Notes: generated by a model not told the origin, from the letters alone. 64,000 nucleotides of DNA from a virus (IMGVR_UViG_3300037851_000452:1-64000); one strand, 5' to 3'; shown: positions 44,341 to 62,558, numbered from the stretch's first letter. Numbers and translations: made by a program.

Positions 44341-44542
44341 TCTTCTGTTTTTGCGCCAGATAGTTGGCAATTACAAGACACGGCTCACAGAAGATTCCAT
44401 ACGACTTGGACGTCCCGGTTACTGAGAAAAACCGCGTAGGCTTGCCTTGATAAATGGCGTCCTCTGGAACGGGATGCCCCGACTGGCAGATTCTGTCAGT
44501 CGGGGCATCTACCTGAGAAATGGTCATACCTACGTCAAGCAT
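44309..44542 (-). CDS. Small putative Zn-finger protein
   Basis: CxxxH...CxxC; start overlaps the upstream stop. Confidence 0.55.
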   Translation of the reverse strand: MLDVGMTISQVDAPTDRICQSGHPVPEDAIYQGKPTRFFSVTGTSKSYGIFCEPCLVIANYLAQKQKNGPFGTRSSS

Positions 44543-46371: not shown

Positions 46372-46598
46372 TACGCTCTCACAATAAAGTCATCCACTTC
46401 CGCTTGAACCAGCTTAGAAATAGCCTCTAGGTTCTTAGTTCCAGCCTCTGACGCTCCACGTCCTTGAAGCACAGAACGAAGAAAACGAACCTCGTTCTCC
46501 AATCGTTCTGATTCTTTTTTAGCCCACTCGTCTACAGCCCTCTTCAACGCGTCTAGGTTAGCGTCTCGAGTTTCCTTTGAAGGGACCCCAGTGCTCAT
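46371..46598 (-). CDS. Small helical hypothetical protein coupled to sigma gene
   Basis: ATGA overlap with the sigma stop. Confidence 0.6.
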   Translation of the reverse strand: MSTGVPSKETRDANLDALKRAVDEWAKKESERLENEVRFLRSVLQGRGASEAGTKNLEAISKLVQAEVDDFIVRA

Positions 46599-47359
46599 TC
46601 TTCCAAGTACTCCTCTAGCTTCTTAGTTATAGAATTCTTAATTCTCGTAACTTTAGATGGGCTGAACCCAAACTTCTTAGCAATCTCTCCAGGCCTCATC
46701 TGGGGTTTACCGTAGTAGCCACCCAGATGGTCAAACACGTTTAGCTCGTCCGGAGTCAGAGTATACCGAACCATCTTTAAGGCATCGGATTCCTTTGACG
46801 GAGATACCGCTGTTGGGTCAAAACTAGAATCCATCCAAGAAAGTCCGCGCTTCTCAGACTCCATTCTTCCAACTTCAGCCTCAGACCACCCAAGCTTCTC
46901 TGACATCTCTAAGGTAGTTGGGTCTCTCCCAAGCTGGTCTTTAAGGGTGGCGTAGGCGTTGTCCCACATACCCGTCTTATAGTACCGGTTCTCCTGAACT
47001 CTAATAGGATCTTGGTATTTGGATATCCAACGCTGAGCCTTTCCCTTGCTCAAGTTGGTGGTTACCCAAGAGCCAAGCTTAGCCCCTTTGTTAGGGTCGT
47101 ATGTCTGCAAGGCTACCACGAACTGCTTTTGGAAAGCGGCGTGCACCGCTTGAGGAGGCATGTCAGCTCGACTAGCCCAGAAGTTTGCGTTCTTTCGTAT
47201 AAGAGGCCTAAAGCTCTGCATCAAAGGCTTTAGGTCCTCAGGATTCTGACCGTTATCTTTCCACTTCTTCCAAAGGTCCAGCTCCCTAAGCTGGGTCTCT
47301 TGAAGATCTGTCGGCCCAGCCATGGCCTCCTTCAAAGAAGTATTTTCGTCGTCGAACAA
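46595..47359 (-). CDS. Phage sigma70-family (group 3, FliA/SigB/F-like) RNA polymerase sigma factor
   Basis: Region 2 ...TYDPNKGAKLGSWV; region 3 LGRDPTTLEMSEKLGWS; region 4 HTH PGEIAKKFGFSPSKVTRIKNS. Confidence 0.85.
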   Translation of the reverse strand: MFDDENTSLKEAMAGPTDLQETQLRELDLWKKWKDNGQNPEDLKPLMQSFRPLIRKNANFWASRADMPPQAVHAAFQKQFVVALQTYDPNKGAKLGSWVTTNLSKGKAQRWISKYQDPIRVQENRYYKTGMWDNAYATLKDQLGRDPTTLEMSEKLGWSEAEVGRMESEKRGLSWMDSSFDPTAVSPSKESDALKMVRYTLTPDELNVFDHLGGYYGKPQMRPGEIAKKFGFSPSKVTRIKNSITKKLEEYLEE

Positions 47360-55209: not shown

Positions 55210-58200
55210 TTAAGCCTTTGCTGGGGCAGGGGCATTAGCGGTCATCTGAGTCCCTTGAGACGCTATCTCCTTAGCAAACTCTTTAACATCCTTATTCAAA
55301 GCCTTACCCACCGCTTCCACGAATCGTGTATTGGCTAGGGTGTACATACGAAGCTGCTCTTCCAAACGATTGGTAGTGCCCTGCGGCTCAGAGAGATTGC
55401 CTTTAGTAATTTTAGATACTAGGTCTTTAAACTTTCCTAAGTCTCCAGATTCCTTTACCTTCTTATAGTCGTCTCCTCCCATAGCCTCTAAATCGTAACC
55501 AAGACCCTTCATCTTCTTTTCAAACGAGGCTAGCTCCTTTCGAGACATGGAGCCAACGTCCATTCCGGCTCTCAAGGCTAGTACCTGCCTACCTATAGCT
55601 CCTCCAGACCGAAGAGCTTTCATTTCATCTTTGCTTAAGCCTCTAGCCAGATTCTCAGCCTCAGCGCCAGCCTGCGTGGTTTCTGACGTTTCCAGAACCT
55701 CGTCGGCTCCTCCGCGATAGAGTCTAACCAGGTTAGAAAAAGCCCTTCCAGATTCTTTTCCTAAACCCTCAACCTGATCGGGACCGGAAGCAGCAATCCC
55801 CTGAACCTTTTTGAGTTCTTCCATCTGTACTTGAGCCCCACGAGCCCCTATGTATCTCTCAGAAAGACCCTTAAACTTTTCTCGCCGCTCTGGGGTCATG
55901 TTGTGTTCTAGTTGGTTGATTATTTTGCTTACGTCTCCGCCACCTTTAATACGAGCCAGGTCGGTATTGGCCTCTGCTGCAGTAAGATCCCCCTTTAGGT
56001 ACTTAGCAAAAATATCTGATCCCGGCCCTCCAAATGCTTTCTCTAAGTCCCCCTCTGTAACTCCGCTGTCTCTGGTATCGGTCTGGGCTCCACGCGAGAA
56101 AGACCCCGCTACAGGTGATCCGCCGCCACCAATTCCAGAAAGAATGGAGGTCAACAAGCTTTTACCACCCAACTCAGACCGCATTTCCGATAAAAGATTC
56201 TCTTGGTTTTCTTTCAACCCTTGTATGTCTGTAGGTATACCAATGGCGGCGGCGTCGCTTTTGAAATCCATGGATGCATCCCCCGCGTAGAATCCCTCCT
56301 CAGTCTGGGCCACAGACAAATAATTGAGCTTCTCCCTGTCGCTCATCCCAGAAAAGACATCCCGGTCCTCAGAACTCATAAGTCTAAGGACTTCTTCCTT
56401 ATACTTTCCAGGGTCGGCCTTTCTTACTTTGCTAAGGCTATAGGAGTGTCTACCTATGGTTCGGCTAAGAACTGATTTAACCCTGGACAGCCTGTTCTCA
56501 TTTATACCCAACCCCTCTTTTCCGCCTTGAGCTCGGATATACGCTTGGCGAATACCCAGCTCTACGTCTGCTTGCGACGTTGTAAAACCCCCTCCCATCT
56601 GTAAAGGACCCCCTCCCTCCATAGATCCTATTCCTACGGTTCTCAAAGCTCTAGCCTTAGGGGTCATCTCTTCGCCTATACCCGTAATAGAACCAACGGC
56701 TCCAAAAAGCCCGCCAGTAATACCTCCCGCAGCTACTCCAGCAGCAGTTTTTCCAATCCAGTCACCGCTTGATAATCTACGGGTCATATTCTCCCACGCT
56801 GAGCCAGTGACAAAGTTCTGCCCCCCGTCAGCAGGCATGAACTTGGAAAAATCAGCAGTAAGGGCACCCTCCCTTAGTAGTCTAGACCTCTCCATGACGC
56901 CCATAGGTATTTTTCGCACACGCCCAGTTATCGTATTGGAAATTCTATCTACTAGGTCTCCGGTTTCTGTAGCTATCTTTTCACCGATCTCGTTAATAGG
57001 ACGAACAGTGTCCTCTATCGCCCTATCGAAGGCACCCTTCAAACCGGACAAGCTGTTGTAAGTTTTCGTATTGTGTTCATCAAAAGCTCTAGACATCGCC
57101 GCTTCCATTTGACGAGCCTTCTCATCCATGATTCTAGGAAGGTCATCAGCCATCTTCCCCAACATCTCGGCCTCTCGTGAAGACACACCGAGCATTTGCT
57201 TGAAAAGATGATGTCTAGCCCTCTCGCTTCCCCGAAAACGAGTGTCGGCTATCTTTTGGACTATGGCGACCATAGATTCTATGCCGCCCTCGGCGGCCAG
57301 ATTTTGACCTATCTGCCCCTCTTTCTCCATAAAAGACATTGCAGCTTCGTTACCTGACGCAGATTTCCTCCCCTGTCTCATCAATTCGTCAACCCCAACA
57401 CCCCCACTCAAGAATTGACCAAGCTTTTTCTTATCTATTCCCCCAGTAAAAACTCCCTCCCTGGTCTCCCCCAAACCAACCATCATAGCTCGGCCCGCAG
57501 AGGTGTTCATCAGGTTGGATGTTATTTGGCCCATTCTTTGAGCTAAAGCGGCCTGGCCCTCTTCCCCAGTCAAACCCCCCGTAAACTCTTCAACGTCCTC
57601 GGCAGAAAGAACACCAGCTCTTTGAGCAGCCTGAATGTTCAAGAAGGACTCTCGCCCTATAGTAGCTCCGGCTCTCCGTGTTCCACCCATGGCGTGGGAT
57701 AATTGAGCCCCGACTGCCATGGTCTGCATCATCTGAGGCGCAGCCTGAGGACCAACAGCTTTAGACGCTATAGCTGTTCCTAAAATGTCAGAGGTCTTCC
57801 AGAGGCCCATCTGCCTCATCTGCATATAGGCTGGAGCTGCCTCTTCAAGTGTAGTCCCCATAACTTTTGCCAGGTCTCTAACCTGACTAACTACCTGACC
57901 GAATCGTTGCTTGAAGGACTGTACGTCAGTGATACCAGTGAGAAGACCCATCTGGCCGGCACGGTCCATTAGGTTTTTTAGCTCCTTCATAGACCCCATG
58001 ATGTCGTCGCCAGCCATTTCCCCCAAGGCACCTACGATACCTTTTATGGTCTGGCGGCCCATCTCCCCACCAGCCCTAGCTCCCGGAGCTCCGAACTGCG
58101 GTCCGAAATACTGGTTCGCCATGCTTCCGACGTCAGAGATGTTCTGAACTCCCTGATACACGCTCCCAGCTACTTGCTGAACTGCAAGTCCAGCAGCCAT

Positions 58201-58668
58201 AATAGGAGCAGCGCCAATTGCGGCACCGGCTAAACCACCACCTAAGGCCCCTAAACCAGCTCTAACCCCCCCAGTTCTAAAGGCGTTGCCCAAGACACCT
58301 AAAGTGTCCCCAAACCCCATCCCAGCCGCTCCAGCTCCCCTAGCAAAGCCCCGAGCTCCCTGGGTGAACGGGTCGAATATGTCTAGTGGGCTTCTCCCCG
58401 TACTGGAGAACATTCCGTGAATGCCCCCAGCCACGGCAAGTCCCGTCATAGCCCCAGGAACAGCCATGACCATGCCGCCCGCTATGCGGTTGCCCAGTTC
58501 TCCTGGCCTCTCAGAAGGGTAGGGGTTCTGCATCCCCCCTCCAGCGGCAAGAGCTCCTCTAGGGGCCATACCCGCCATGCCGCCAATCTGGTACGAGAAG
58601 GCGGCTTGATTACCAAACATGGCCGACTGCCCGCCGATGAGACCCGATATTTCAGAACTGGTGTACAT
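55210..58668 (-). CDS. Tape measure-like protein
   Basis: 1152 aa, Gly/Ala/Met-rich, helical, with hydrophobic Gly stretches; upstream of tube-initiator and hub genes. Confidence 0.75.
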   Translation of the reverse strand: MYTSSEISGLIGGQSAMFGNQAAFSYQIGGMAGMAPRGALAAGGGMQNPYPSERPGELGNRIAGGMVMAVPGAMTGLAVAGGIHGMFSSTGRSPLDIFDPFTQGARGFARGAGAAGMGFGDTLGVLGNAFRTGGVRAGLGALGGGLAGAAIGAAPIMAAGLAVQQVAGSVYQGVQNISDVGSMANQYFGPQFGAPGARAGGEMGRQTIKGIVGALGEMAGDDIMGSMKELKNLMDRAGQMGLLTGITDVQSFKQRFGQVVSQVRDLAKVMGTTLEEAAPAYMQMRQMGLWKTSDILGTAIASKAVGPQAAPQMMQTMAVGAQLSHAMGGTRRAGATIGRESFLNIQAAQRAGVLSAEDVEEFTGGLTGEEGQAALAQRMGQITSNLMNTSAGRAMMVGLGETREGVFTGGIDKKKLGQFLSGGVGVDELMRQGRKSASGNEAAMSFMEKEGQIGQNLAAEGGIESMVAIVQKIADTRFRGSERARHHLFKQMLGVSSREAEMLGKMADDLPRIMDEKARQMEAAMSRAFDEHNTKTYNSLSGLKGAFDRAIEDTVRPINEIGEKIATETGDLVDRISNTITGRVRKIPMGVMERSRLLREGALTADFSKFMPADGGQNFVTGSAWENMTRRLSSGDWIGKTAAGVAAGGITGGLFGAVGSITGIGEEMTPKARALRTVGIGSMEGGGPLQMGGGFTTSQADVELGIRQAYIRAQGGKEGLGINENRLSRVKSVLSRTIGRHSYSLSKVRKADPGKYKEEVLRLMSSEDRDVFSGMSDREKLNYLSVAQTEEGFYAGDASMDFKSDAAAIGIPTDIQGLKENQENLLSEMRSELGGKSLLTSILSGIGGGGSPVAGSFSRGAQTDTRDSGVTEGDLEKAFGGPGSDIFAKYLKGDLTAAEANTDLARIKGGGDVSKIINQLEHNMTPERREKFKGLSERYIGARGAQVQMEELKKVQGIAASGPDQVEGLGKESGRAFSNLVRLYRGGADEVLETSETTQAGAEAENLARGLSKDEMKALRSGGAIGRQVLALRAGMDVGSMSRKELASFEKKMKGLGYDLEAMGGDDYKKVKESGDLGKFKDLVSKITKGNLSEPQGTTNRLEEQLRMYTLANTRFVEAVGKALNKDVKEFAKEIASQGTQMTANAPAPAKA

Positions 58669-58694
58669 GTGCTCTCTTTTCCTTGCTCTCTAGG

Positions 58695-58704
58695 AAAATA
58701 GCAG
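58695..58704 (-). promoter_or_regulatory. CTGCTATTTT extended -10-like element upstream of TMP
   Basis: Identical 10-mer also at 59116-59125 upstream of the next minus-strand gene. Confidence 0.4.
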
Positions 58705-58707
58705 AGT

Positions 58708-58736
58708 GAAAAGATGACGTATAGCTTTGGGATAAG
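58708..58736 (+). promoter_or_regulatory. Bipartite promoter-like motif GAAAAGAT-N12-TGGGATAAG
   Basis: Second copy with identical spacing at 61705-61733. Confidence 0.55.
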
Positions 58737-58742
58737 TTTAAT

Positions 58743-58838
58743 GTCGGAGGGCTCGACGTTGGAAAAGTCCGACCATCTGGTCGAGATAAGACCGTTGAGC
58801 CGAAGGAGCTTCCGCAGGGCGCCCGGTTCCGCTCCGAC
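58743..58838 (+). ncRNA. Candidate structured ncRNA A
   Basis: Closing stem GTCGGAG/CTCCGAC; 9-bp stem GGCTCGACG/CGTTGAGCC; GGAGCT/GGTTCC; G:U pairs favour the + strand. Confidence 0.45.
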
Positions 58839-58844
58839 GATATC

Positions 58845-59093
58845 TTAGGTGTTTTTATTAGAGCAGAATGCGTCCAAATGGCCTTTGGACTTTTGGTACA
58901 GGTAGCCCTCGATGGCGAGCCTCTCTTCCTTAGACAAAGGGCACTTCCGAAACTGAGGGTCCACGGAACTGACGTAGTCCGAAAACCTGGAGACTTCTTG
59001 CTTGCACAAGTCTCTCAGCCGATCGGTAGATTGAAGTACCTGTTGCTTTGTTTCTTCGGGCACGTTTAATAGCAAAGAAAAAGTAGGTTCCAT
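58845..59093 (-). CDS. Small hypothetical protein
   Basis: 82-aa ORF divergent from ligase. Confidence 0.6.
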   Translation of the reverse strand: MEPTFSLLLNVPEETKQQVLQSTDRLRDLCKQEVSRFSDYVSSVDPQFRKCPLSKEERLAIEGYLYQKSKGHLDAFCSNKNT

Positions 59094-59144
59094 CCGACTG
59101 TTTTAGCTTACGACCAAAATAGCAGTCAACTACAGGAGTTCAAC

Positions 59145-60563
59145 ATGAGAATGTTCCTTCAAGACAAGGGCCGGACGTCTAAGGCACAGGTGTGGGTCGT
59201 AGAAAGAAAAGGTAACCGGGTCATTACGGAGTGGGGACAGTTAGACGGAGCCCAACAAAAAACAGAGGAGAGCTTCGAGGCAGTTAACGTTGGGAAGTCG
59301 AATGAAAAGAGCCCTGAAGAGGTTGCTCAGGAGTCTATGGACCGGGACATTAAGAAGAAGACCAGAGAGGGGTATCGAGAAGTGAACCCCAAAACACGGG
59401 AGTTCCTGACAGAAAAATCAAGCAGCGAGATCGACTTCGGTGAGCTCCCCCAGAATCTTAGGTTCTTCAAGCCACAGAACTCTATAAACAGCTACATCCA
59501 TAAGAAGATAGAAGAACGGTCCGCGTGGCTACTTAGAAAAAGAGACGGGATGATGCACGTAGTCTCTATTGGAGAAGACGGCGTGCCAAGAATGTTCTCC
59601 TCCAACATGTTACCCGCCCATAAGAATGAACCCGAGGTGCCCTGGCTAACTAGGTACCCGCACCTAGAAGCAGATCTGAAAGGTTTGCACCTACCCGCCA
59701 GAACAATACTTCTAGGAGAGATTTGCACCTGCGCGCATTCGGGGCATAGGGACTCCGAAGGATACGCCAAAGACGACTTCATATACGTTGGGTCCGTAGT
59801 AAAGAGCCTAACTCCCCGAGCCCTAGAGCTTCAGAAAGAGAAAGGAAACCTGGCGTTCTGTATATGGGACGTAGCTTTTTGGGGAGGTTGCTGCTGGCTA
59901 ACGGAAGAGCCGGCGTTCAAGCGTATGAACCATGTTACAGACCTCCTGGAAGAAGGAAGAACTAGGTACATCACATTTCCAGAGGTCATCAATCTATGGG
60001 GTGATGGGTTCACAGTAAGATCTCAAGAAACAAAGGTTCCTGGAGACTATATCTACGGAGAAGCCCGAGACACGGATGAGAAAATAAAGACCATGTTGAA
60101 CTGGGCCAAGAAATTGGGATGGGAGGGATTCGTGGCTATTGACCCGGACATTAGATACGACGATAGGGCCTACAACTTCCACGGGAAAGCAGAGAGGCCA
60201 AAAGAGGTGGTGAAGTTGAAGCCCACTCTAGAGGCCGATTTCATTGTTAGGTGGGACCCTGACAACGGTATTGGAGAGCGAGGCAAGGGAAAGAAGAGCG
60301 GAGGAGTTGGCTCTGTAATGGCCTATCTATGGGACCCAGACGTCAAAGAAGAAGTTCCCGTGTGCAAGGTAGGAGGGGGTCTAACAGACGAGTTAGTTCG
60401 AGAGTTCGCCAACCCAGAACTCTACCCGATGGTCTGGCAAATAGAATTCAGTGAATGGACGGACAAGGGAGCTCTTCGGTTTCCTGAGTTCGTTCGAGTT
60501 AGAGACGACAAGTCTCCAGAAGACTGCACCATCTACCAGAAACCTAACGCGGAGGAAGAATGA
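59145..60563 (+). CDS. lig: ATP-dependent DNA ligase with WGR-like N-terminal domain
   Basis: Motif I KRDG, III LLGEI, IIIa FCIWDV, IV EGFV, V KLKP, VI LRFPEFVRVRDDK; N-terminal EWGQLDG...KKKTREGY; SD AGGAG. Confidence 0.9.
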   Translation: MRMFLQDKGRTSKAQVWVVERKGNRVITEWGQLDGAQQKTEESFEAVNVGKSNEKSPEEVAQESMDRDIKKKTREGYREVNPKTREFLTEKSSSEIDFGELPQNLRFFKPQNSINSYIHKKIEERSAWLLRKRDGMMHVVSIGEDGVPRMFSSNMLPAHKNEPEVPWLTRYPHLEADLKGLHLPARTILLGEICTCAHSGHRDSEGYAKDDFIYVGSVVKSLTPRALELQKEKGNLAFCIWDVAFWGGCCWLTEEPAFKRMNHVTDLLEEGRTRYITFPEVINLWGDGFTVRSQETKVPGDYIYGEARDTDEKIKTMLNWAKKLGWEGFVAIDPDIRYDDRAYNFHGKAERPKEVVKLKPTLEADFIVRWDPDNGIGERGKGKKSGGVGSVMAYLWDPDVKEEVPVCKVGGGLTDELVREFANPELYPMVWQIEFSEWTDKGALRFPEFVRVRDDKSPEDCTIYQKPNAEEE

Positions 60564-60811
60564 GCCCTATCATCGAAAGAAAGTTCATCAGAAAACAACC
60601 GAAGCCTGAAGAACCGGCTCAGACAGTAGAGCTGGACGACACTAAAGTCATCCCCCTCAAAGATCAGAAAGGTAATATACTGTTTAGGGGAACGCTAAAA
60701 GAGATTGTGGAGTGGTCTAACGCGACCTTCGCTCAAAGAGAGGCCGCTAGAGTTTCTGATTCTTGTAGATTCTTTGACACGTCGGGCACTTCTGTCCCTC
60801 CGCAGTCGTGA
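60560..60811 (+). CDS. Small hypothetical protein
   Basis: ATGA-coupled to ligase. Confidence 0.55.
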   Translation: MSPIIERKFIRKQPKPEEPAQTVELDDTKVIPLKDQKGNILFRGTLKEIVEWSNATFAQREAARVSDSCRFFDTSGTSVPPQS

Positions 60812-61440
60812 CTGTCAACGACTTGTCCGTCGGGCACCGAATCCTCTTCATGGCACCCGCAGCCGCACTCGTCCCCCTCCGTATCTGACGGTTCGTCGGA
60901 ACAGCAATCTTCGGCATAGTCTCCTCCAAACTCATTAGGTTCCTGGTCGGTCTTGGCAGAAGATGCCTCTCCGACTGGTAGTGGGGGCAGAGATTCAAGA
61001 TCTCCCCCCATTACCCACGTCCTCATATGCTCCCTAAAATCAGGTCGCTTCTTGAAGGTTTCCCATTCTGAGAACAGGGAATTGATAGCCTCGTACGAGA
61101 TAGGGTCTGCATCCGCCCCAGATACCCGAAGGTTGAGCTCATTAAGAGCCACAACAGACAGTCGAGTAAGAACTGCGAACTGGTCATCGAGCTGTTTGTG
61201 TGCCTCTTGCAGAGCTACCTGGTTCTCCCAGATAGTCTGAATGGCAGACGCCACTGCTCGAAACCTCTCGTCAGTTGGAGGCACTGCTTGGGCCGTTTTT
61301 TCCAAGGATTGACTTTCCTTTTGGGGACGAGATTGTCCTTTTGCCGGCAGGACGGTTAGTTTGATCTGGCGCTTTTCCTTCCTCTTTTGTTCCTTCTGAA
61401 CTTTCTTTTGCATTTGCCTCGTGCTGCTCGACTTTGTCAT
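60733..61440 (-). CDS. Hypothetical protein (basic N-terminus, acidic tail)
   Basis: SD GAGGAG upstream of ATG 61440. Confidence 0.6.
   Translation of the reverse strand: MTKSSSTRQMQKKVQKEQKRKEKRQIKLTVLPAKGQSRPQKESQSLEKTAQAVPPTDERFRAVASAIQTIWENQVALQEAHKQLDDQFAVLTRLSVVALNELNLRVSGADADPISYEAINSLFSEWETFKKRPDFREHMRTWVMGGDLESLPPLPVGEASSAKTDQEPNEFGGDYAEDCCSDEPSDTEGDECGCGCHEEDSVPDGQVVDSHDCGGTEVPDVSKNLQESETLAASL
60747..60917 (-). CDS. Nested 56-aa basic Zn-ribbon-like protein
   Basis: GGAGGAG SD then MPKIAVPTNRQIRRG...CPTD...CPTCQRIY. Confidence 0.55.
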   Translation of the reverse strand: MPKIAVPTNRQIRRGTSAAAGAMKRIRCPTDKSLTVTTAEGQKCPTCQRIYKNQKL

Positions 61441-61702
61441 GTACTTTCTCCTCTACGTACAAGTTTTCTAGATGCTCAATTTGCTCATTCAGTGGATGTA
61501 GCTCTGTTGTAAGTACTCCAGTGATGAACTCCCTAACAATCTGTTGAGGAACCATTTTCCCGTCGGACGAGATACCCTTAGAGGCCTTACGAACCTCGTC
61601 GTCTACAAAGGCTCTTAGGTGATCTACTACTTCTAGCCATATAGACCGGGTATGTCGTAGTTTCTCTACCTTATCAAAGGCTTCCGCAAGAGTTAATGGC
61701 AT
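61271..61702 (-). CDS. Hypothetical helical protein
   Basis: Likely start ATG 61702 (MPLTLAEAF) behind GGAG. Confidence 0.6.
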   Translation of the reverse strand: MPLTLAEAFDKVEKLRHTRSIWLEVVDHLRAFVDDEVRKASKGISSDGKMVPQQIVREFITGVLTTELHPLNEQIEHLENLYVEEKVHDKVEQHEANAKESSEGTKEEGKAPDQTNRPAGKRTISSPKGKSILGKNGPSSASN

Positions 61703-61704
61703 AC

Positions 61705-61733
61705 GAAAAAATCTCCACGACTTCTGGTACAAG
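61705..61733 (+). promoter_or_regulatory. Bipartite promoter-like motif GAAAAAAT-N12-TGGTACAAG
   Basis: Matches 58708-58736. Confidence 0.55.
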
Positions 61734-61739
61734 GCTACT

Positions 61740-61857
61740 GTGCGACCCTCGGCAGCAATCCTCGCGAGATTGGCTGTGGACCTGACCCGGGTTGGGTAGA
61801 GGACAATCGGCCGTGCCGGCTAGCAATGTCCCCGGTTGGAATGAGTGATGCAGGCAC
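61740..61857 (+). ncRNA. Candidate structured ncRNA B
   Basis: Hairpins 61752-61777, 61780-61797 and 61801-61831 enclosed by GTGC/GCAC; G:U pairs favour the + strand. Confidence 0.4.
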
Positions 61858-61865
61858 GTAAAACA

Positions 61866-62558
61866 TTAGCTGGTAATCATCCCAAGAAATCTCTTTTTTA
61901 GGTCTGCTCCAGCAGATAGGTCCTTAATAATGTTCTTGAGGGGATATATCAACGGTTTGCGCTGAACTCTAACCCTGTCCAACCTGTCCAGGTCTGTGGT
62001 GCTCTCGTGCAGGGGGTCGTATCGGATCTCAAACGGAGAGTACTTCAAGTAGATATCCACATCTCCGCCTAGCTGGTGGAACGTATTAACCAAAAGGTCT
62101 GCTAGTTTGGACGGGGTAAGACGTGCCATCTTTTCCCCCACCACGATTGGCATAGACTCCAACTGAGAAGTGCTGCGTCCTTCCTCCTTGGACACTTCAA
62201 TATGCCGACTTTTACCTTCTGGGTCCAAGAACATTTCCCTACCGCAGTGCGGGCAAACAACATGCATGTACCCGAAATTATCAGAAGACATAGGTTTGCC
62301 ACAGTCTTTAAAACCGCACCAATACATCTTCTGATCGCCGCCGCCGTGTAACTTCTTTCCAGACTCCCAGATCAACAGCATCAAAGGGGATGCCACGTGA
62401 GACAAGGTAGACCGATGACGGCTAAAAATAACCTCTATCTTGTACCGGGCAACATAAGGATTAGCAGGCACTCCTAGAGGCTTAGAGAGACGTTCCTTCT
62501 CCGCGGAGGTCAGCACCACCTCGTCTCTAATGCCTGCTGAAACAGGAGTTACGTTCAT
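61866..62558 (-). CDS. Zn-ribbon-containing hypothetical protein
   Basis: CGFKDC...CPHC. Confidence 0.65.
   Translation of the reverse strand: MNVTPVSAGIRDEVVLTSAEKERLSKPLGVPANPYVARYKIEVIFSRHRSTLSHVASPLMLLIWESGKKLHGGGDQKMYWCGFKDCGKPMSSDNFGYMHVVCPHCGREMFLDPEGKSRHIEVSKEEGRSTSQLESMPIVVGEKMARLTPSKLADLLVNTFHQLGGDVDIYLKYSPFEIRYDPLHESTTDLDRLDRVRVQRKPLIYPLKNIIKDLSAGADLKKRFLGMITS

Follow-up and report, generated by a model that had tools for sequence, protein, structure and literature searches.

The question raised by this locus is what is held by two non-coding gaps in the minus-strand late operon of an uncultured phage. The window analyzed here is the 64,000-nucleotide (nt) stretch IMGVR_UViG_3300037851_000452:1-64000, i.e., the opening 64 kb of one IMG/VR phage contig with a length of 105,845 bp (CheckV completeness 55%), whose genes lie on the minus strand from 0.4 to 69.7 kb, a DNA ligase gene (59145-60563) excepted, and on the plus strand from 69.9 kb on. 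Gap 1 (58669-58844) separates genes g82 and g1152, and gap 2 (61703-61865) separates g230 and g143; both are non-coding. An earlier reading of the sequence alone, hereafter the original prediction, had called them the two largest gaps; by our measurement both rank within the top four of the minus arm's non-coding gaps in size. We propose that each holds a free-standing small-RNA gene on the plus strand, placed backwards within the operon. Each unit would start from a promoter of a class found across the phage (TGAAAAG-N14/15-GGnAYAAG), transcription being predicted to begin at a TG situated 5-6 nt past the -10-like box, and would yield an RNA of 100-120 nt with its ends paired in a closing stem; downstream of it, most relatives carry a U-run, either alone or after a hairpin. 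That the two RNA genes exist, on this strand and with these promoters, we regard as highly probable; the whole account, which adds action of the RNAs as folded molecules, dimerization of RNA1 and a damping of late genes, we regard as probable. The elements concerned are the following.

58707-58736, plus strand: RNA1 promoter, consisting of a -35-like TGAAAAG (58707-58713), a 15-nt spacer and a -10-like GGGATAAG (58729-58736); position weight matrix (PWM) score 23.9, same distance in 14 RNA1 loci
58742-58839, plus strand: RNA1, a ~98-nt three-way-junction RNA, predicted from covariance model R2, covariation and fold z-score
58817-58824, plus strand: 8-nt palindrome GGGCGCCC within the RNA1 P3 loop, a candidate kissing-loop dimerization site recognized from aligned relatives
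61704-61733, plus strand: RNA2 promoter, consisting of a -35-like CGAAAAA (61704-61710), a spacer and a -10-like GGTACAAG (61726-61733); PWM score 19.6, arrangement kept in 11 RNA2 loci
61739-61860, plus strand: RNA2, ~120 nt, with a 5' multi-helix domain closed by helix P1 and a 3' hairpin domain, predicted from covariance model R1

The comparison covers 43 loci, retrieved by scanning metagenomes and IMG/VR with alignments of g1152 and g230 and belonging to phages of ~130-200 kb; the closest relative, P0002 (61% identity, 95-kb contig), lies outside the compared loci. Within IMG/VR, a scan with single proteins found nothing and the alignment-based scan found one locus. GenBank phages gave no DNA or protein match to the region, to g230 or to g1152, and no cultured phage matches.

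In RNA1, helix P1 joins the 5' and 3' ends, P2 contains the conserved sequence AGACC as well as an inner hairpin, and P3 ends in an apical loop of 15-17 nt. Model R2 finds this one architecture in 13 distinct copies. Across the alignment, 91.3% of the cells in consensus helices are paired vs. 74.9% in shuffled alignments (0/500 shuffles as high), and the covariation score is 0.61 vs. 0.29. The structure is intact in L007 and L021 despite the separation of RNA1 from g1152 by inserted genes. When five whole related contigs were searched with R2, only weak matches were returned (E >= 0.03). At L011:5500-5665 and L001:9808-9971 (minus strand), a promoter stands at the RNA1 position and is followed by an RNA that the RNA1 model does not recognize; in L011 it comprises a closed stem and a hairpin, then UUUCUU. 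The RNA in these two loci may have been replaced or have highly diverged.

RNA2 is found by R1 in 11 distinct copies. The model has no other match in the genome, nor any in 776 kb of unrelated viral DNA, a set of 80 loci that served as a specificity control only. Pairing amounts to 90.3% of cells vs. 79.4% in shuffles, 20 of the 31 pairs show two-sided changes, and none of 500 shuffles reach the observed values. The consensus fold predicted by RNAalifold has 33 pairs and -32.2 kcal/mol on the plus strand vs. 27 pairs and -23.0 kcal/mol in gene orientation. Registers slid along the alignments, used as covariation controls for both RNAs, were at most 48% paired. R1 and R2 do not detect each other's locus; RNA1 and RNA2 are therefore unrelated families, in line with the earlier remark that they share no obvious primary sequence. 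Searches of the window against Rfam 15 gave 0 matches at the gathering threshold, and in E-value mode the region 58600-61950 and the best-conserved copies, those of L012, gave chance-level matches only, far below gathering; ARAGORN called 0 tRNA or tmRNA genes in the window. Conserved in relatives and unmatched in Rfam, the two elements thus bear out the proposal of two undescribed structured small RNAs on the plus strand.

Strand can be read from wobble pairs, which survive on one strand only. The ratio of G:U to A:C cells in the consensus helices is 31:9 in RNA1 and 42:10 in RNA2, a reading on the minus strand drops pairing from ~91% to ~81%, and the closing stems use U:G pairs, with CG-UG-UA series among the copies. 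This excess of G:U places the RNAs on the plus strand, antisense to the operon. In the window, the RNA1 fold compares with shuffles at z -2.4 on the plus strand vs. 0.06 on the minus strand. The original prediction had the folds working on the plus strand only, with the G of a TGT beginning the closing stem of a multi-hairpin fold in both RNAs, and named covariation in homologous loci among the checks; strand and covariation agree with this, and the TG does open the closing stem of a multi-helix fold.

The helices might instead belong to the minus-strand mRNA, as a processing site, a translational operator or a stabilizer, the plus-strand promoter motif being a coincidence. Watson-Crick helices are present on both strands, the elements lie within an operon, and RNAalifold does form its 27 pairs in gene orientation. 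However, the 31 and 42 G:U cells turn into A:C mismatches in that orientation, the closing stems depend on U:G pairs, the direction of the motif is validated at plus-arm genes (see below), and the A-runs past the upstream stop codons have no evident sense-strand role. We consider this explanation very improbable.

Still less probable, and in our judgment close to negligible, is that the gaps encode small proteins. The window does contain a 44-amino acid (aa) open reading frame (ORF) on the plus strand (58714-58848) and minus-strand ORFs of 43 aa (61735-61866) and 50 aa (61674-61826), and codon-level conservation of such short ORFs had been named beforehand as an outcome that would speak against RNA genes. 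Yet, tblastn gave no match to them at E 1e-3 in 21 related loci, where no protein-level conservation was seen; in relatives their frames either close or shift, the lengths of alignment gaps are not divisible by three, and the substitution pattern is that of base-pair covariation.

What would transcribe the two RNAs? The motifs GAAAAGAT-N12-TGGGATAAG-N5-TGT (58708-58744) and GAAAAAAT-N12-TGGTACAAG-N5-TGT (61705-61741), on which the original prediction rested, are present in gaps 1 and 2 with the same spacing. Across the relatives they generalize to TGAAAAG-N14/15-GGnAYAAG, then 5 nt, then the TG with which P1 begins, the distance being the same in 25/25 instances; in L007 and L021 the motif stays beside RNA1, away from g1152. 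A shuffle test of the pattern in the window (2 vs. 0.02) is circular, the pattern having been built from those two sites; 23 further instances in relatives and other sites in the same genome are independent of the founding pair. Over the whole genome, the PWM gives 16 matches with a score of at least 15 vs. 2.2 in shuffles, and 10 with a score of at least 18 vs. 0.34. Leaving out the two RNA sites and one match inside RNA1, plus-strand matches lie at 69765, 73306, 79165, 92437, 94087, 94541, 98448, 100822 and 101271. These nine are all intergenic, 16-140 nt before plus-strand ORFs, which fixes the reading direction of the motif. A weaker plus-strand match (score 14.7) lies at 74761; minus-strand matches lie at 69741, i.e., at the divergence point that heads the minus arm, and at 100496. 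In 410 kb of late-region DNA from relatives, matches are almost only the RNA1 and RNA2 sites, all of them antisense. The idea of a promoter dedicated to the two RNAs had to be given up, since the same motif precedes about ten plus-strand ORFs between 69.7 and 101 kb; it is a general directional promoter class. Scanned over IMG/VR, the strict pattern occurs in 113 stretches, roughly the number expected by chance, and RNA1 and RNA2 occur in none of the 80 control loci.

Several further sites of this class deserve mention. Those of the form TGAAAAG-N15-GGTATAAG are intergenic in the plus arm and point in both directions at the 69.7-kb divergence point. For several plus-arm transcripts from this class, a stable hairpin would form at the 5' end (at 94577 and 98485, z is about -5 to -6). 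At 79165-79295, beyond the window, the segment downstream of a promoter scoring 21.0 contains a 5' hairpin, then one of 19 bp and seven U (z -5.5). This unit has the look of a third small RNA (~95 nt), or else of an attenuator ahead of the ORF at 79253. Inside the window copy of RNA1, at 58761-58790 (plus strand), lies a second promoter-like match, GGAAAAG-N15-GAGATAAG, with a score of 18.1; it is probably due to chance, because relatives carry AAGACC there without the full box.

The window also encodes a possible reader of these promoters.

46595-47359, minus strand: divergent sigma-70-family protein (Pfam Sigma70_r3, PHROG 351), candidate reader of the promoter class

Its best matches are weak (SigB/F/G, E 1.3e-07; FliA, E 1.4e-04) and far below the curated cut-offs, which makes a link to group 3 plausible at most; homologs occur in 4/5 related phage contigs, and we take this protein as the leading candidate for reading the class. 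A primary sigma-70 promoter was considered and rejected. With group-1 promoters defined by a -10 hexamer whose second base is A and whose sixth is T, and a TTGACA-like -35 at a distance of 16-18 nt, a consensus scan returned 0 sites in 58600-62000, and the -10-like box ends in G in 25/25 instances and at all plus-arm sites, where primary sigma factors need T. Sigma-28 promoters read TAAA-N15-GCCGATAA and SigB promoters GTTTAA-N12-14-GGGTAT. The class described here resembles these group-3 promoters only in part, namely in its A-rich -35, the GG at the upstream edge of the -10 and the ATAA core, yet TGAAAAG/GGnAYAAG with its invariant final G fully fits neither sigma-28 nor SigB.

The genetic context of the two RNA genes is formed by the following features.

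55210-58668, minus strand: g1152, a large Gly/Met-rich protein of 1152 aa with 69 homologs, downstream of gap 1 in the sense direction
58845-59093, minus strand: g82, a conserved small protein with tblastn matches in 18 loci, upstream of gap 1 in the sense direction
58872-58896, plus strand: weak terminator-like hairpin plus TTTTGG, downstream of RNA1 and antisense within the 3' end of g82
59145-60563, plus strand: ATP-dependent DNA ligase (PHROG 114 and Pfam ligase domains), the sole plus-strand protein gene in this part of the minus arm
61271-61702, minus strand: g143, whose translation start region overlaps the RNA2 promoter
61866-62558, minus strand: g230, a conserved Cys-rich protein whose stop codon adjoins the 3' side of RNA2

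The gene order g113-g88-g170-g230-[gap 2]-g143-g235-ligase-g82-[gap 1]-g1152-g75-g777 is kept in relatives, including the placement of the ligase on the opposite strand. In 8 loci, gap 2 has a length of 148-163 nt, and its conservation equals that of the proteins on either side. In the distant relatives L027-L043, which lack gap 2, g230 is -4 to 47 nt from the next gene; RNA2 is, by this comparison, an insertion specific to one clade. Gap 1 is homologous over the last ~180 nt before g1152, and it is longer overall in relatives because an extra ORF of 90-100 aa follows g82 there. Such an extra ORF (90-113 aa), absent from the window, was seen after g82 in L001, L010, L011, L012, L015 and L021, and further ORFs are inserted between RNA1 and g1152 in L007 and L021.

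As for the 3' ends, a run of at least four T lies within 40 nt downstream, in plus orientation, in 19/25 instances. In L003, L008, L009 and L019 a GNRA-loop hairpin precedes the T-run after RNA1, and in other relatives a T-run comes directly after P1. These T-runs are the complement of A-runs situated just past the upstream stop codon, for which no sense-strand role is evident. By a strict scan, terminator-like sites in the region are no more numerous than in shuffles.

These ends bear on whether RNA1 could be the 5' leader or attenuator of a longer plus-strand transcript that runs through g82, antisense, into the ligase gene, the hairpin and U-run downstream acting as a regulated terminator. 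The ligase is the only nearby plus-strand protein gene, its start diverges from that of g82 at a distance of just 51 nt, and RNA1 remains on the ligase side when insertions occur. Of the plus-strand promoters of this class, that of RNA1 is also the nearest one preceding the ligase, both in the window and in every relative scanned, and RNA1 could lead into the gene because no other promoter of the class precedes it in any relative. Against this stand the one or two opposite-strand genes between RNA1 and the ligase, which are 306 nt apart in the window and 0.7-1.4 kb apart in relatives, the strong hairpin and U-run after RNA1 in L003, L008, L009 and L019, and the lack of any match to a ligand-binding family in Rfam. 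Moreover, RNA2 has the same architecture with no plus-strand gene downstream for ~8 kb. A leader of this kind appears improbable to us.

Several observations weigh against the proposal of two small-RNA genes. The window copy of RNA2 is the most divergent and weakest member of its family (R1, 41.6 bits, E 1.4e-07): it forms 22/31 consensus pairs, replaces helix 3 by a longer hairpin of its own, lacks a nearby U-run and, folded alone, has no excess stability on the plus or the minus strand (z +1.3 to +1.9). Since the fold of this copy is no better than shuffles, its support is comparative; of the multi-hairpin folds originally claimed for the window, that of RNA1 beats shuffles by itself and that of RNA2 relies on covariation. 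The G:U excess is somewhat inflated because the structures were predicted on the plus strand, and for helices predicted on both strands G:U and A:C are roughly even. The strict terminator scan made no call after RNA1 in L009, where the T-runs begin 3 nt after the stem and for that reason go uncalled, and in the window found only the weak site at 58872-58896. For both RNAs, the strand, the two ends and the abundance are predictions.

If the RNA genes are real, their position within operon junctions raises the issue of whether they act simply as cis-antisense RNAs, i.e., by pairing with read-through operon mRNA or by blocking transcription head-on and so timing g1152 and g143, with the folds serving only for stability or initial contacts. 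This is a serious rival, especially for RNA2, and we give it a substantial minority share of the probability. Both RNAs are antisense in operon junctions. The -35 box and spacer of the RNA2 promoter lie exactly over the g143 start: in 11/11 loci they are the reverse complement of the start codon, the spacer and the GGAG Shine-Dalgarno sequence. The RNA1 promoter stands back-to-back with a conserved extended -10-like element, CAGTCTGGTAGGTTG, just upstream of g1152, and antisense RNAs with defined starts are known from other phages (PMC10914365). On the other hand, the RNA bodies cover spacer only, not a ribosome site or coding sequence. The overlap of body and target looked for in the OOP/CopA type was thus not found, only the promoter of RNA2 overlapping the Shine-Dalgarno sequence and ATG of g143. 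RNA1 is intact in L007 and L021, where inserted genes part it from g1152, and distant relatives run the same gene junction without a gap. Conserved unpaired motifs and a covarying palindrome would, in addition, be superfluous for an RNA whose target is perfectly complementary.

The near-identical block CAGTCTGGTAGGTTG itself lies between the RNA1 promoter and the g1152 start (window 58680-58706, minus strand), where the window has TCTGCTATTTT; equivalents are present in L002, L003, L005, L008, L009, L010, L013 and L019. Matching TGnTAnnnT, an extended -10, when read in gene direction, it may serve g1152 as a back-to-back promoter. No further sites upstream of minus-arm genes turned up in a search for TCTGnTAnnTT.

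Our proposal is that the RNAs would work as folded molecules and not merely as complements of mRNA, because unpaired junction and loop motifs are conserved and the palindrome covaries, and because RNA1 is kept when uncoupled from g1152 and RNA2 is a clade-specific insertion. Whether this extends to action in trans is an almost even call from such data, and we lean slightly against it. By firing against the operon, in the case of RNA2 over the g143 ribosome site, the promoters would probably also dampen or time the downstream late genes.

The most distinctive feature of RNA1 is its P3 loop. The aligned 8-mers at 58817-58824 and the equivalent positions, GGGCGCCC, GGACGUCC, GAGCGCUC, GGGGCCCC, GGGAUCCC, GAGUACUC and GAGGCCUC, are all perfect palindromes; of the 13 distinct RNA1 sequences, 11 have a palindrome of 8 nt at the same loop position and the remaining two have one of 6 nt, and it is unpaired in most minimum free energy folds. 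Scored as four pairs, the 8-mer shows two-sided changes only and no one-sided ones: alignment pairs 86/91 and 87/90 alternate between GC and AU, and the central pair 88/89 occurs as CG, GC, AU and UA. Such selection for self-complementarity points to pairing between two RNA1 molecules, because adjacent bases cannot pair within one hairpin and because a perfectly complementary sense RNA or DNA needs no palindrome. We thus somewhat favor the view that RNA1 pairs with a second RNA1 as a kissing-loop homodimer through this GC-rich 8-nt loop. A stronger version, in which RNA1 is an obligate kissing-loop homodimer and both RNAs are trans effectors of a phage-sigma regulon that bind a host or phage protein or RNA and do not regulate their neighbors, is conceivable, but we think it unlikely.

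Comparable loops are known from the HIV-1 dimerization initiation site (DIS) and from oskar mRNA, which likewise present a GC-rich perfect palindrome in an apical loop, flanked by unpaired purines, with variants that stay self-complementary. There, however, the palindrome is of 6 nt and belongs to a genome or an mRNA, whereas in RNA1 it is of 8 nt, lies in a loop of 15-17 nt, is part of a small phage RNA, and the dimer is predicted. To our knowledge, no DIS-like device has been described for any bacteriophage small RNA. RNA1 also recalls the phi29 pRNA, another phage RNA of ~120 nt with its own promoter, a three-way junction, paired ends and loops for RNA-RNA contacts. In contrast to RNA1, with its single self-complementary loop in a ~190-kb phage, the phi29 pRNA uses two mutually complementary loops to form a ring on the portal of small podoviruses; a single self-complementary loop would allow dimers only. 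Rfam searches gave no sequence match between the phi29 pRNA and either RNA.

Lambda OOP and P22 sar are short antisense RNAs with their own promoter and terminator, and the likeness to RNA1 and RNA2 lies in a small RNA gene with its own promoter that runs against a phage operon and ends near an opposite-strand stop codon. Unlike OOP and sar, which are simple structures of one or two hairpins overlapping coding or ribosome-site sequence of the target, RNA1 and RNA2 are multi-helix RNAs of 100-120 nt with a terminal stem, confined to spacers; their sequences are unrelated to those of OOP and sar, and RNA1 also bears the palindromic loop. In the Pseudomonas phages LUZ19, LUZ24, YuA, PAK_P3 and phiKZ, twenty antisense species with defined starts were mapped (PMC10914365). 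These resemble our pair in that promoters facing opposite to the genes produce discrete antisense RNAs in late or structural regions, but they are transcript-mapped and not reported as conserved folded families, whereas RNA1 and RNA2 are defined by covariation across uncultured phages.

Two other identities were tried for the RNAs and rejected. A hammerhead ribozyme came to mind from a CTGATGA in two relatives, a motif that is not conserved. The vrRNAs of the VIPR type are recognized by tandem 5-nt units with GGY/NN or a fixed base at every fifth position (bioRxiv 10.64898/2026.04.26.720920); neither RNA showed a 5-nt phase signal above shuffles.

While phage antisense RNAs with their own promoters are known, what is new is the two RNA families, the consensus of the promoter and the covarying, DIS-like loop. 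Knowledge of large uncultured phages is almost confined to their proteins, and here two RNA families and a promoter class of one such lineage could be defined purely by comparison. The consensus offers a handle on the transcription program of a sigma-carrying phage group, and the covarying palindromic loop a signature of RNA-RNA self-association readable from sequence only. If RNA1 does dimerize, dimeric small RNAs would join the phage repertoire and provide a compact natural dimerization module.

With regard to the neighboring genes, the ATG of g1152 at 58668 is backed by the N-termini of its 69 homologs; the public call P0001 (1122 aa) begins 30 codons late, and the region 58578-58668 belongs to the gene. 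No Pfam or PHROGs match was obtained for g82, g143, g235, g230, g170 or g1152, and protein atlas look-ups for g143 and g230 yielded no usable function. The starts of g82 and the ligase are divergent (59094-59144), and the ligase and g235 converge across 169 nt (60564-60732); because of this divergence and convergence, the minus arm is unlikely to be a single transcription unit around g82, ligase and g235. Farther along the minus arm, a gap of 171 nt between g119 and a 497-aa gene (44371-44541, minus strand) holds a long perfect hairpin in gene direction, GCCCCGACTG...CAGTCGGGGC, which may be a terminator or a processing site.

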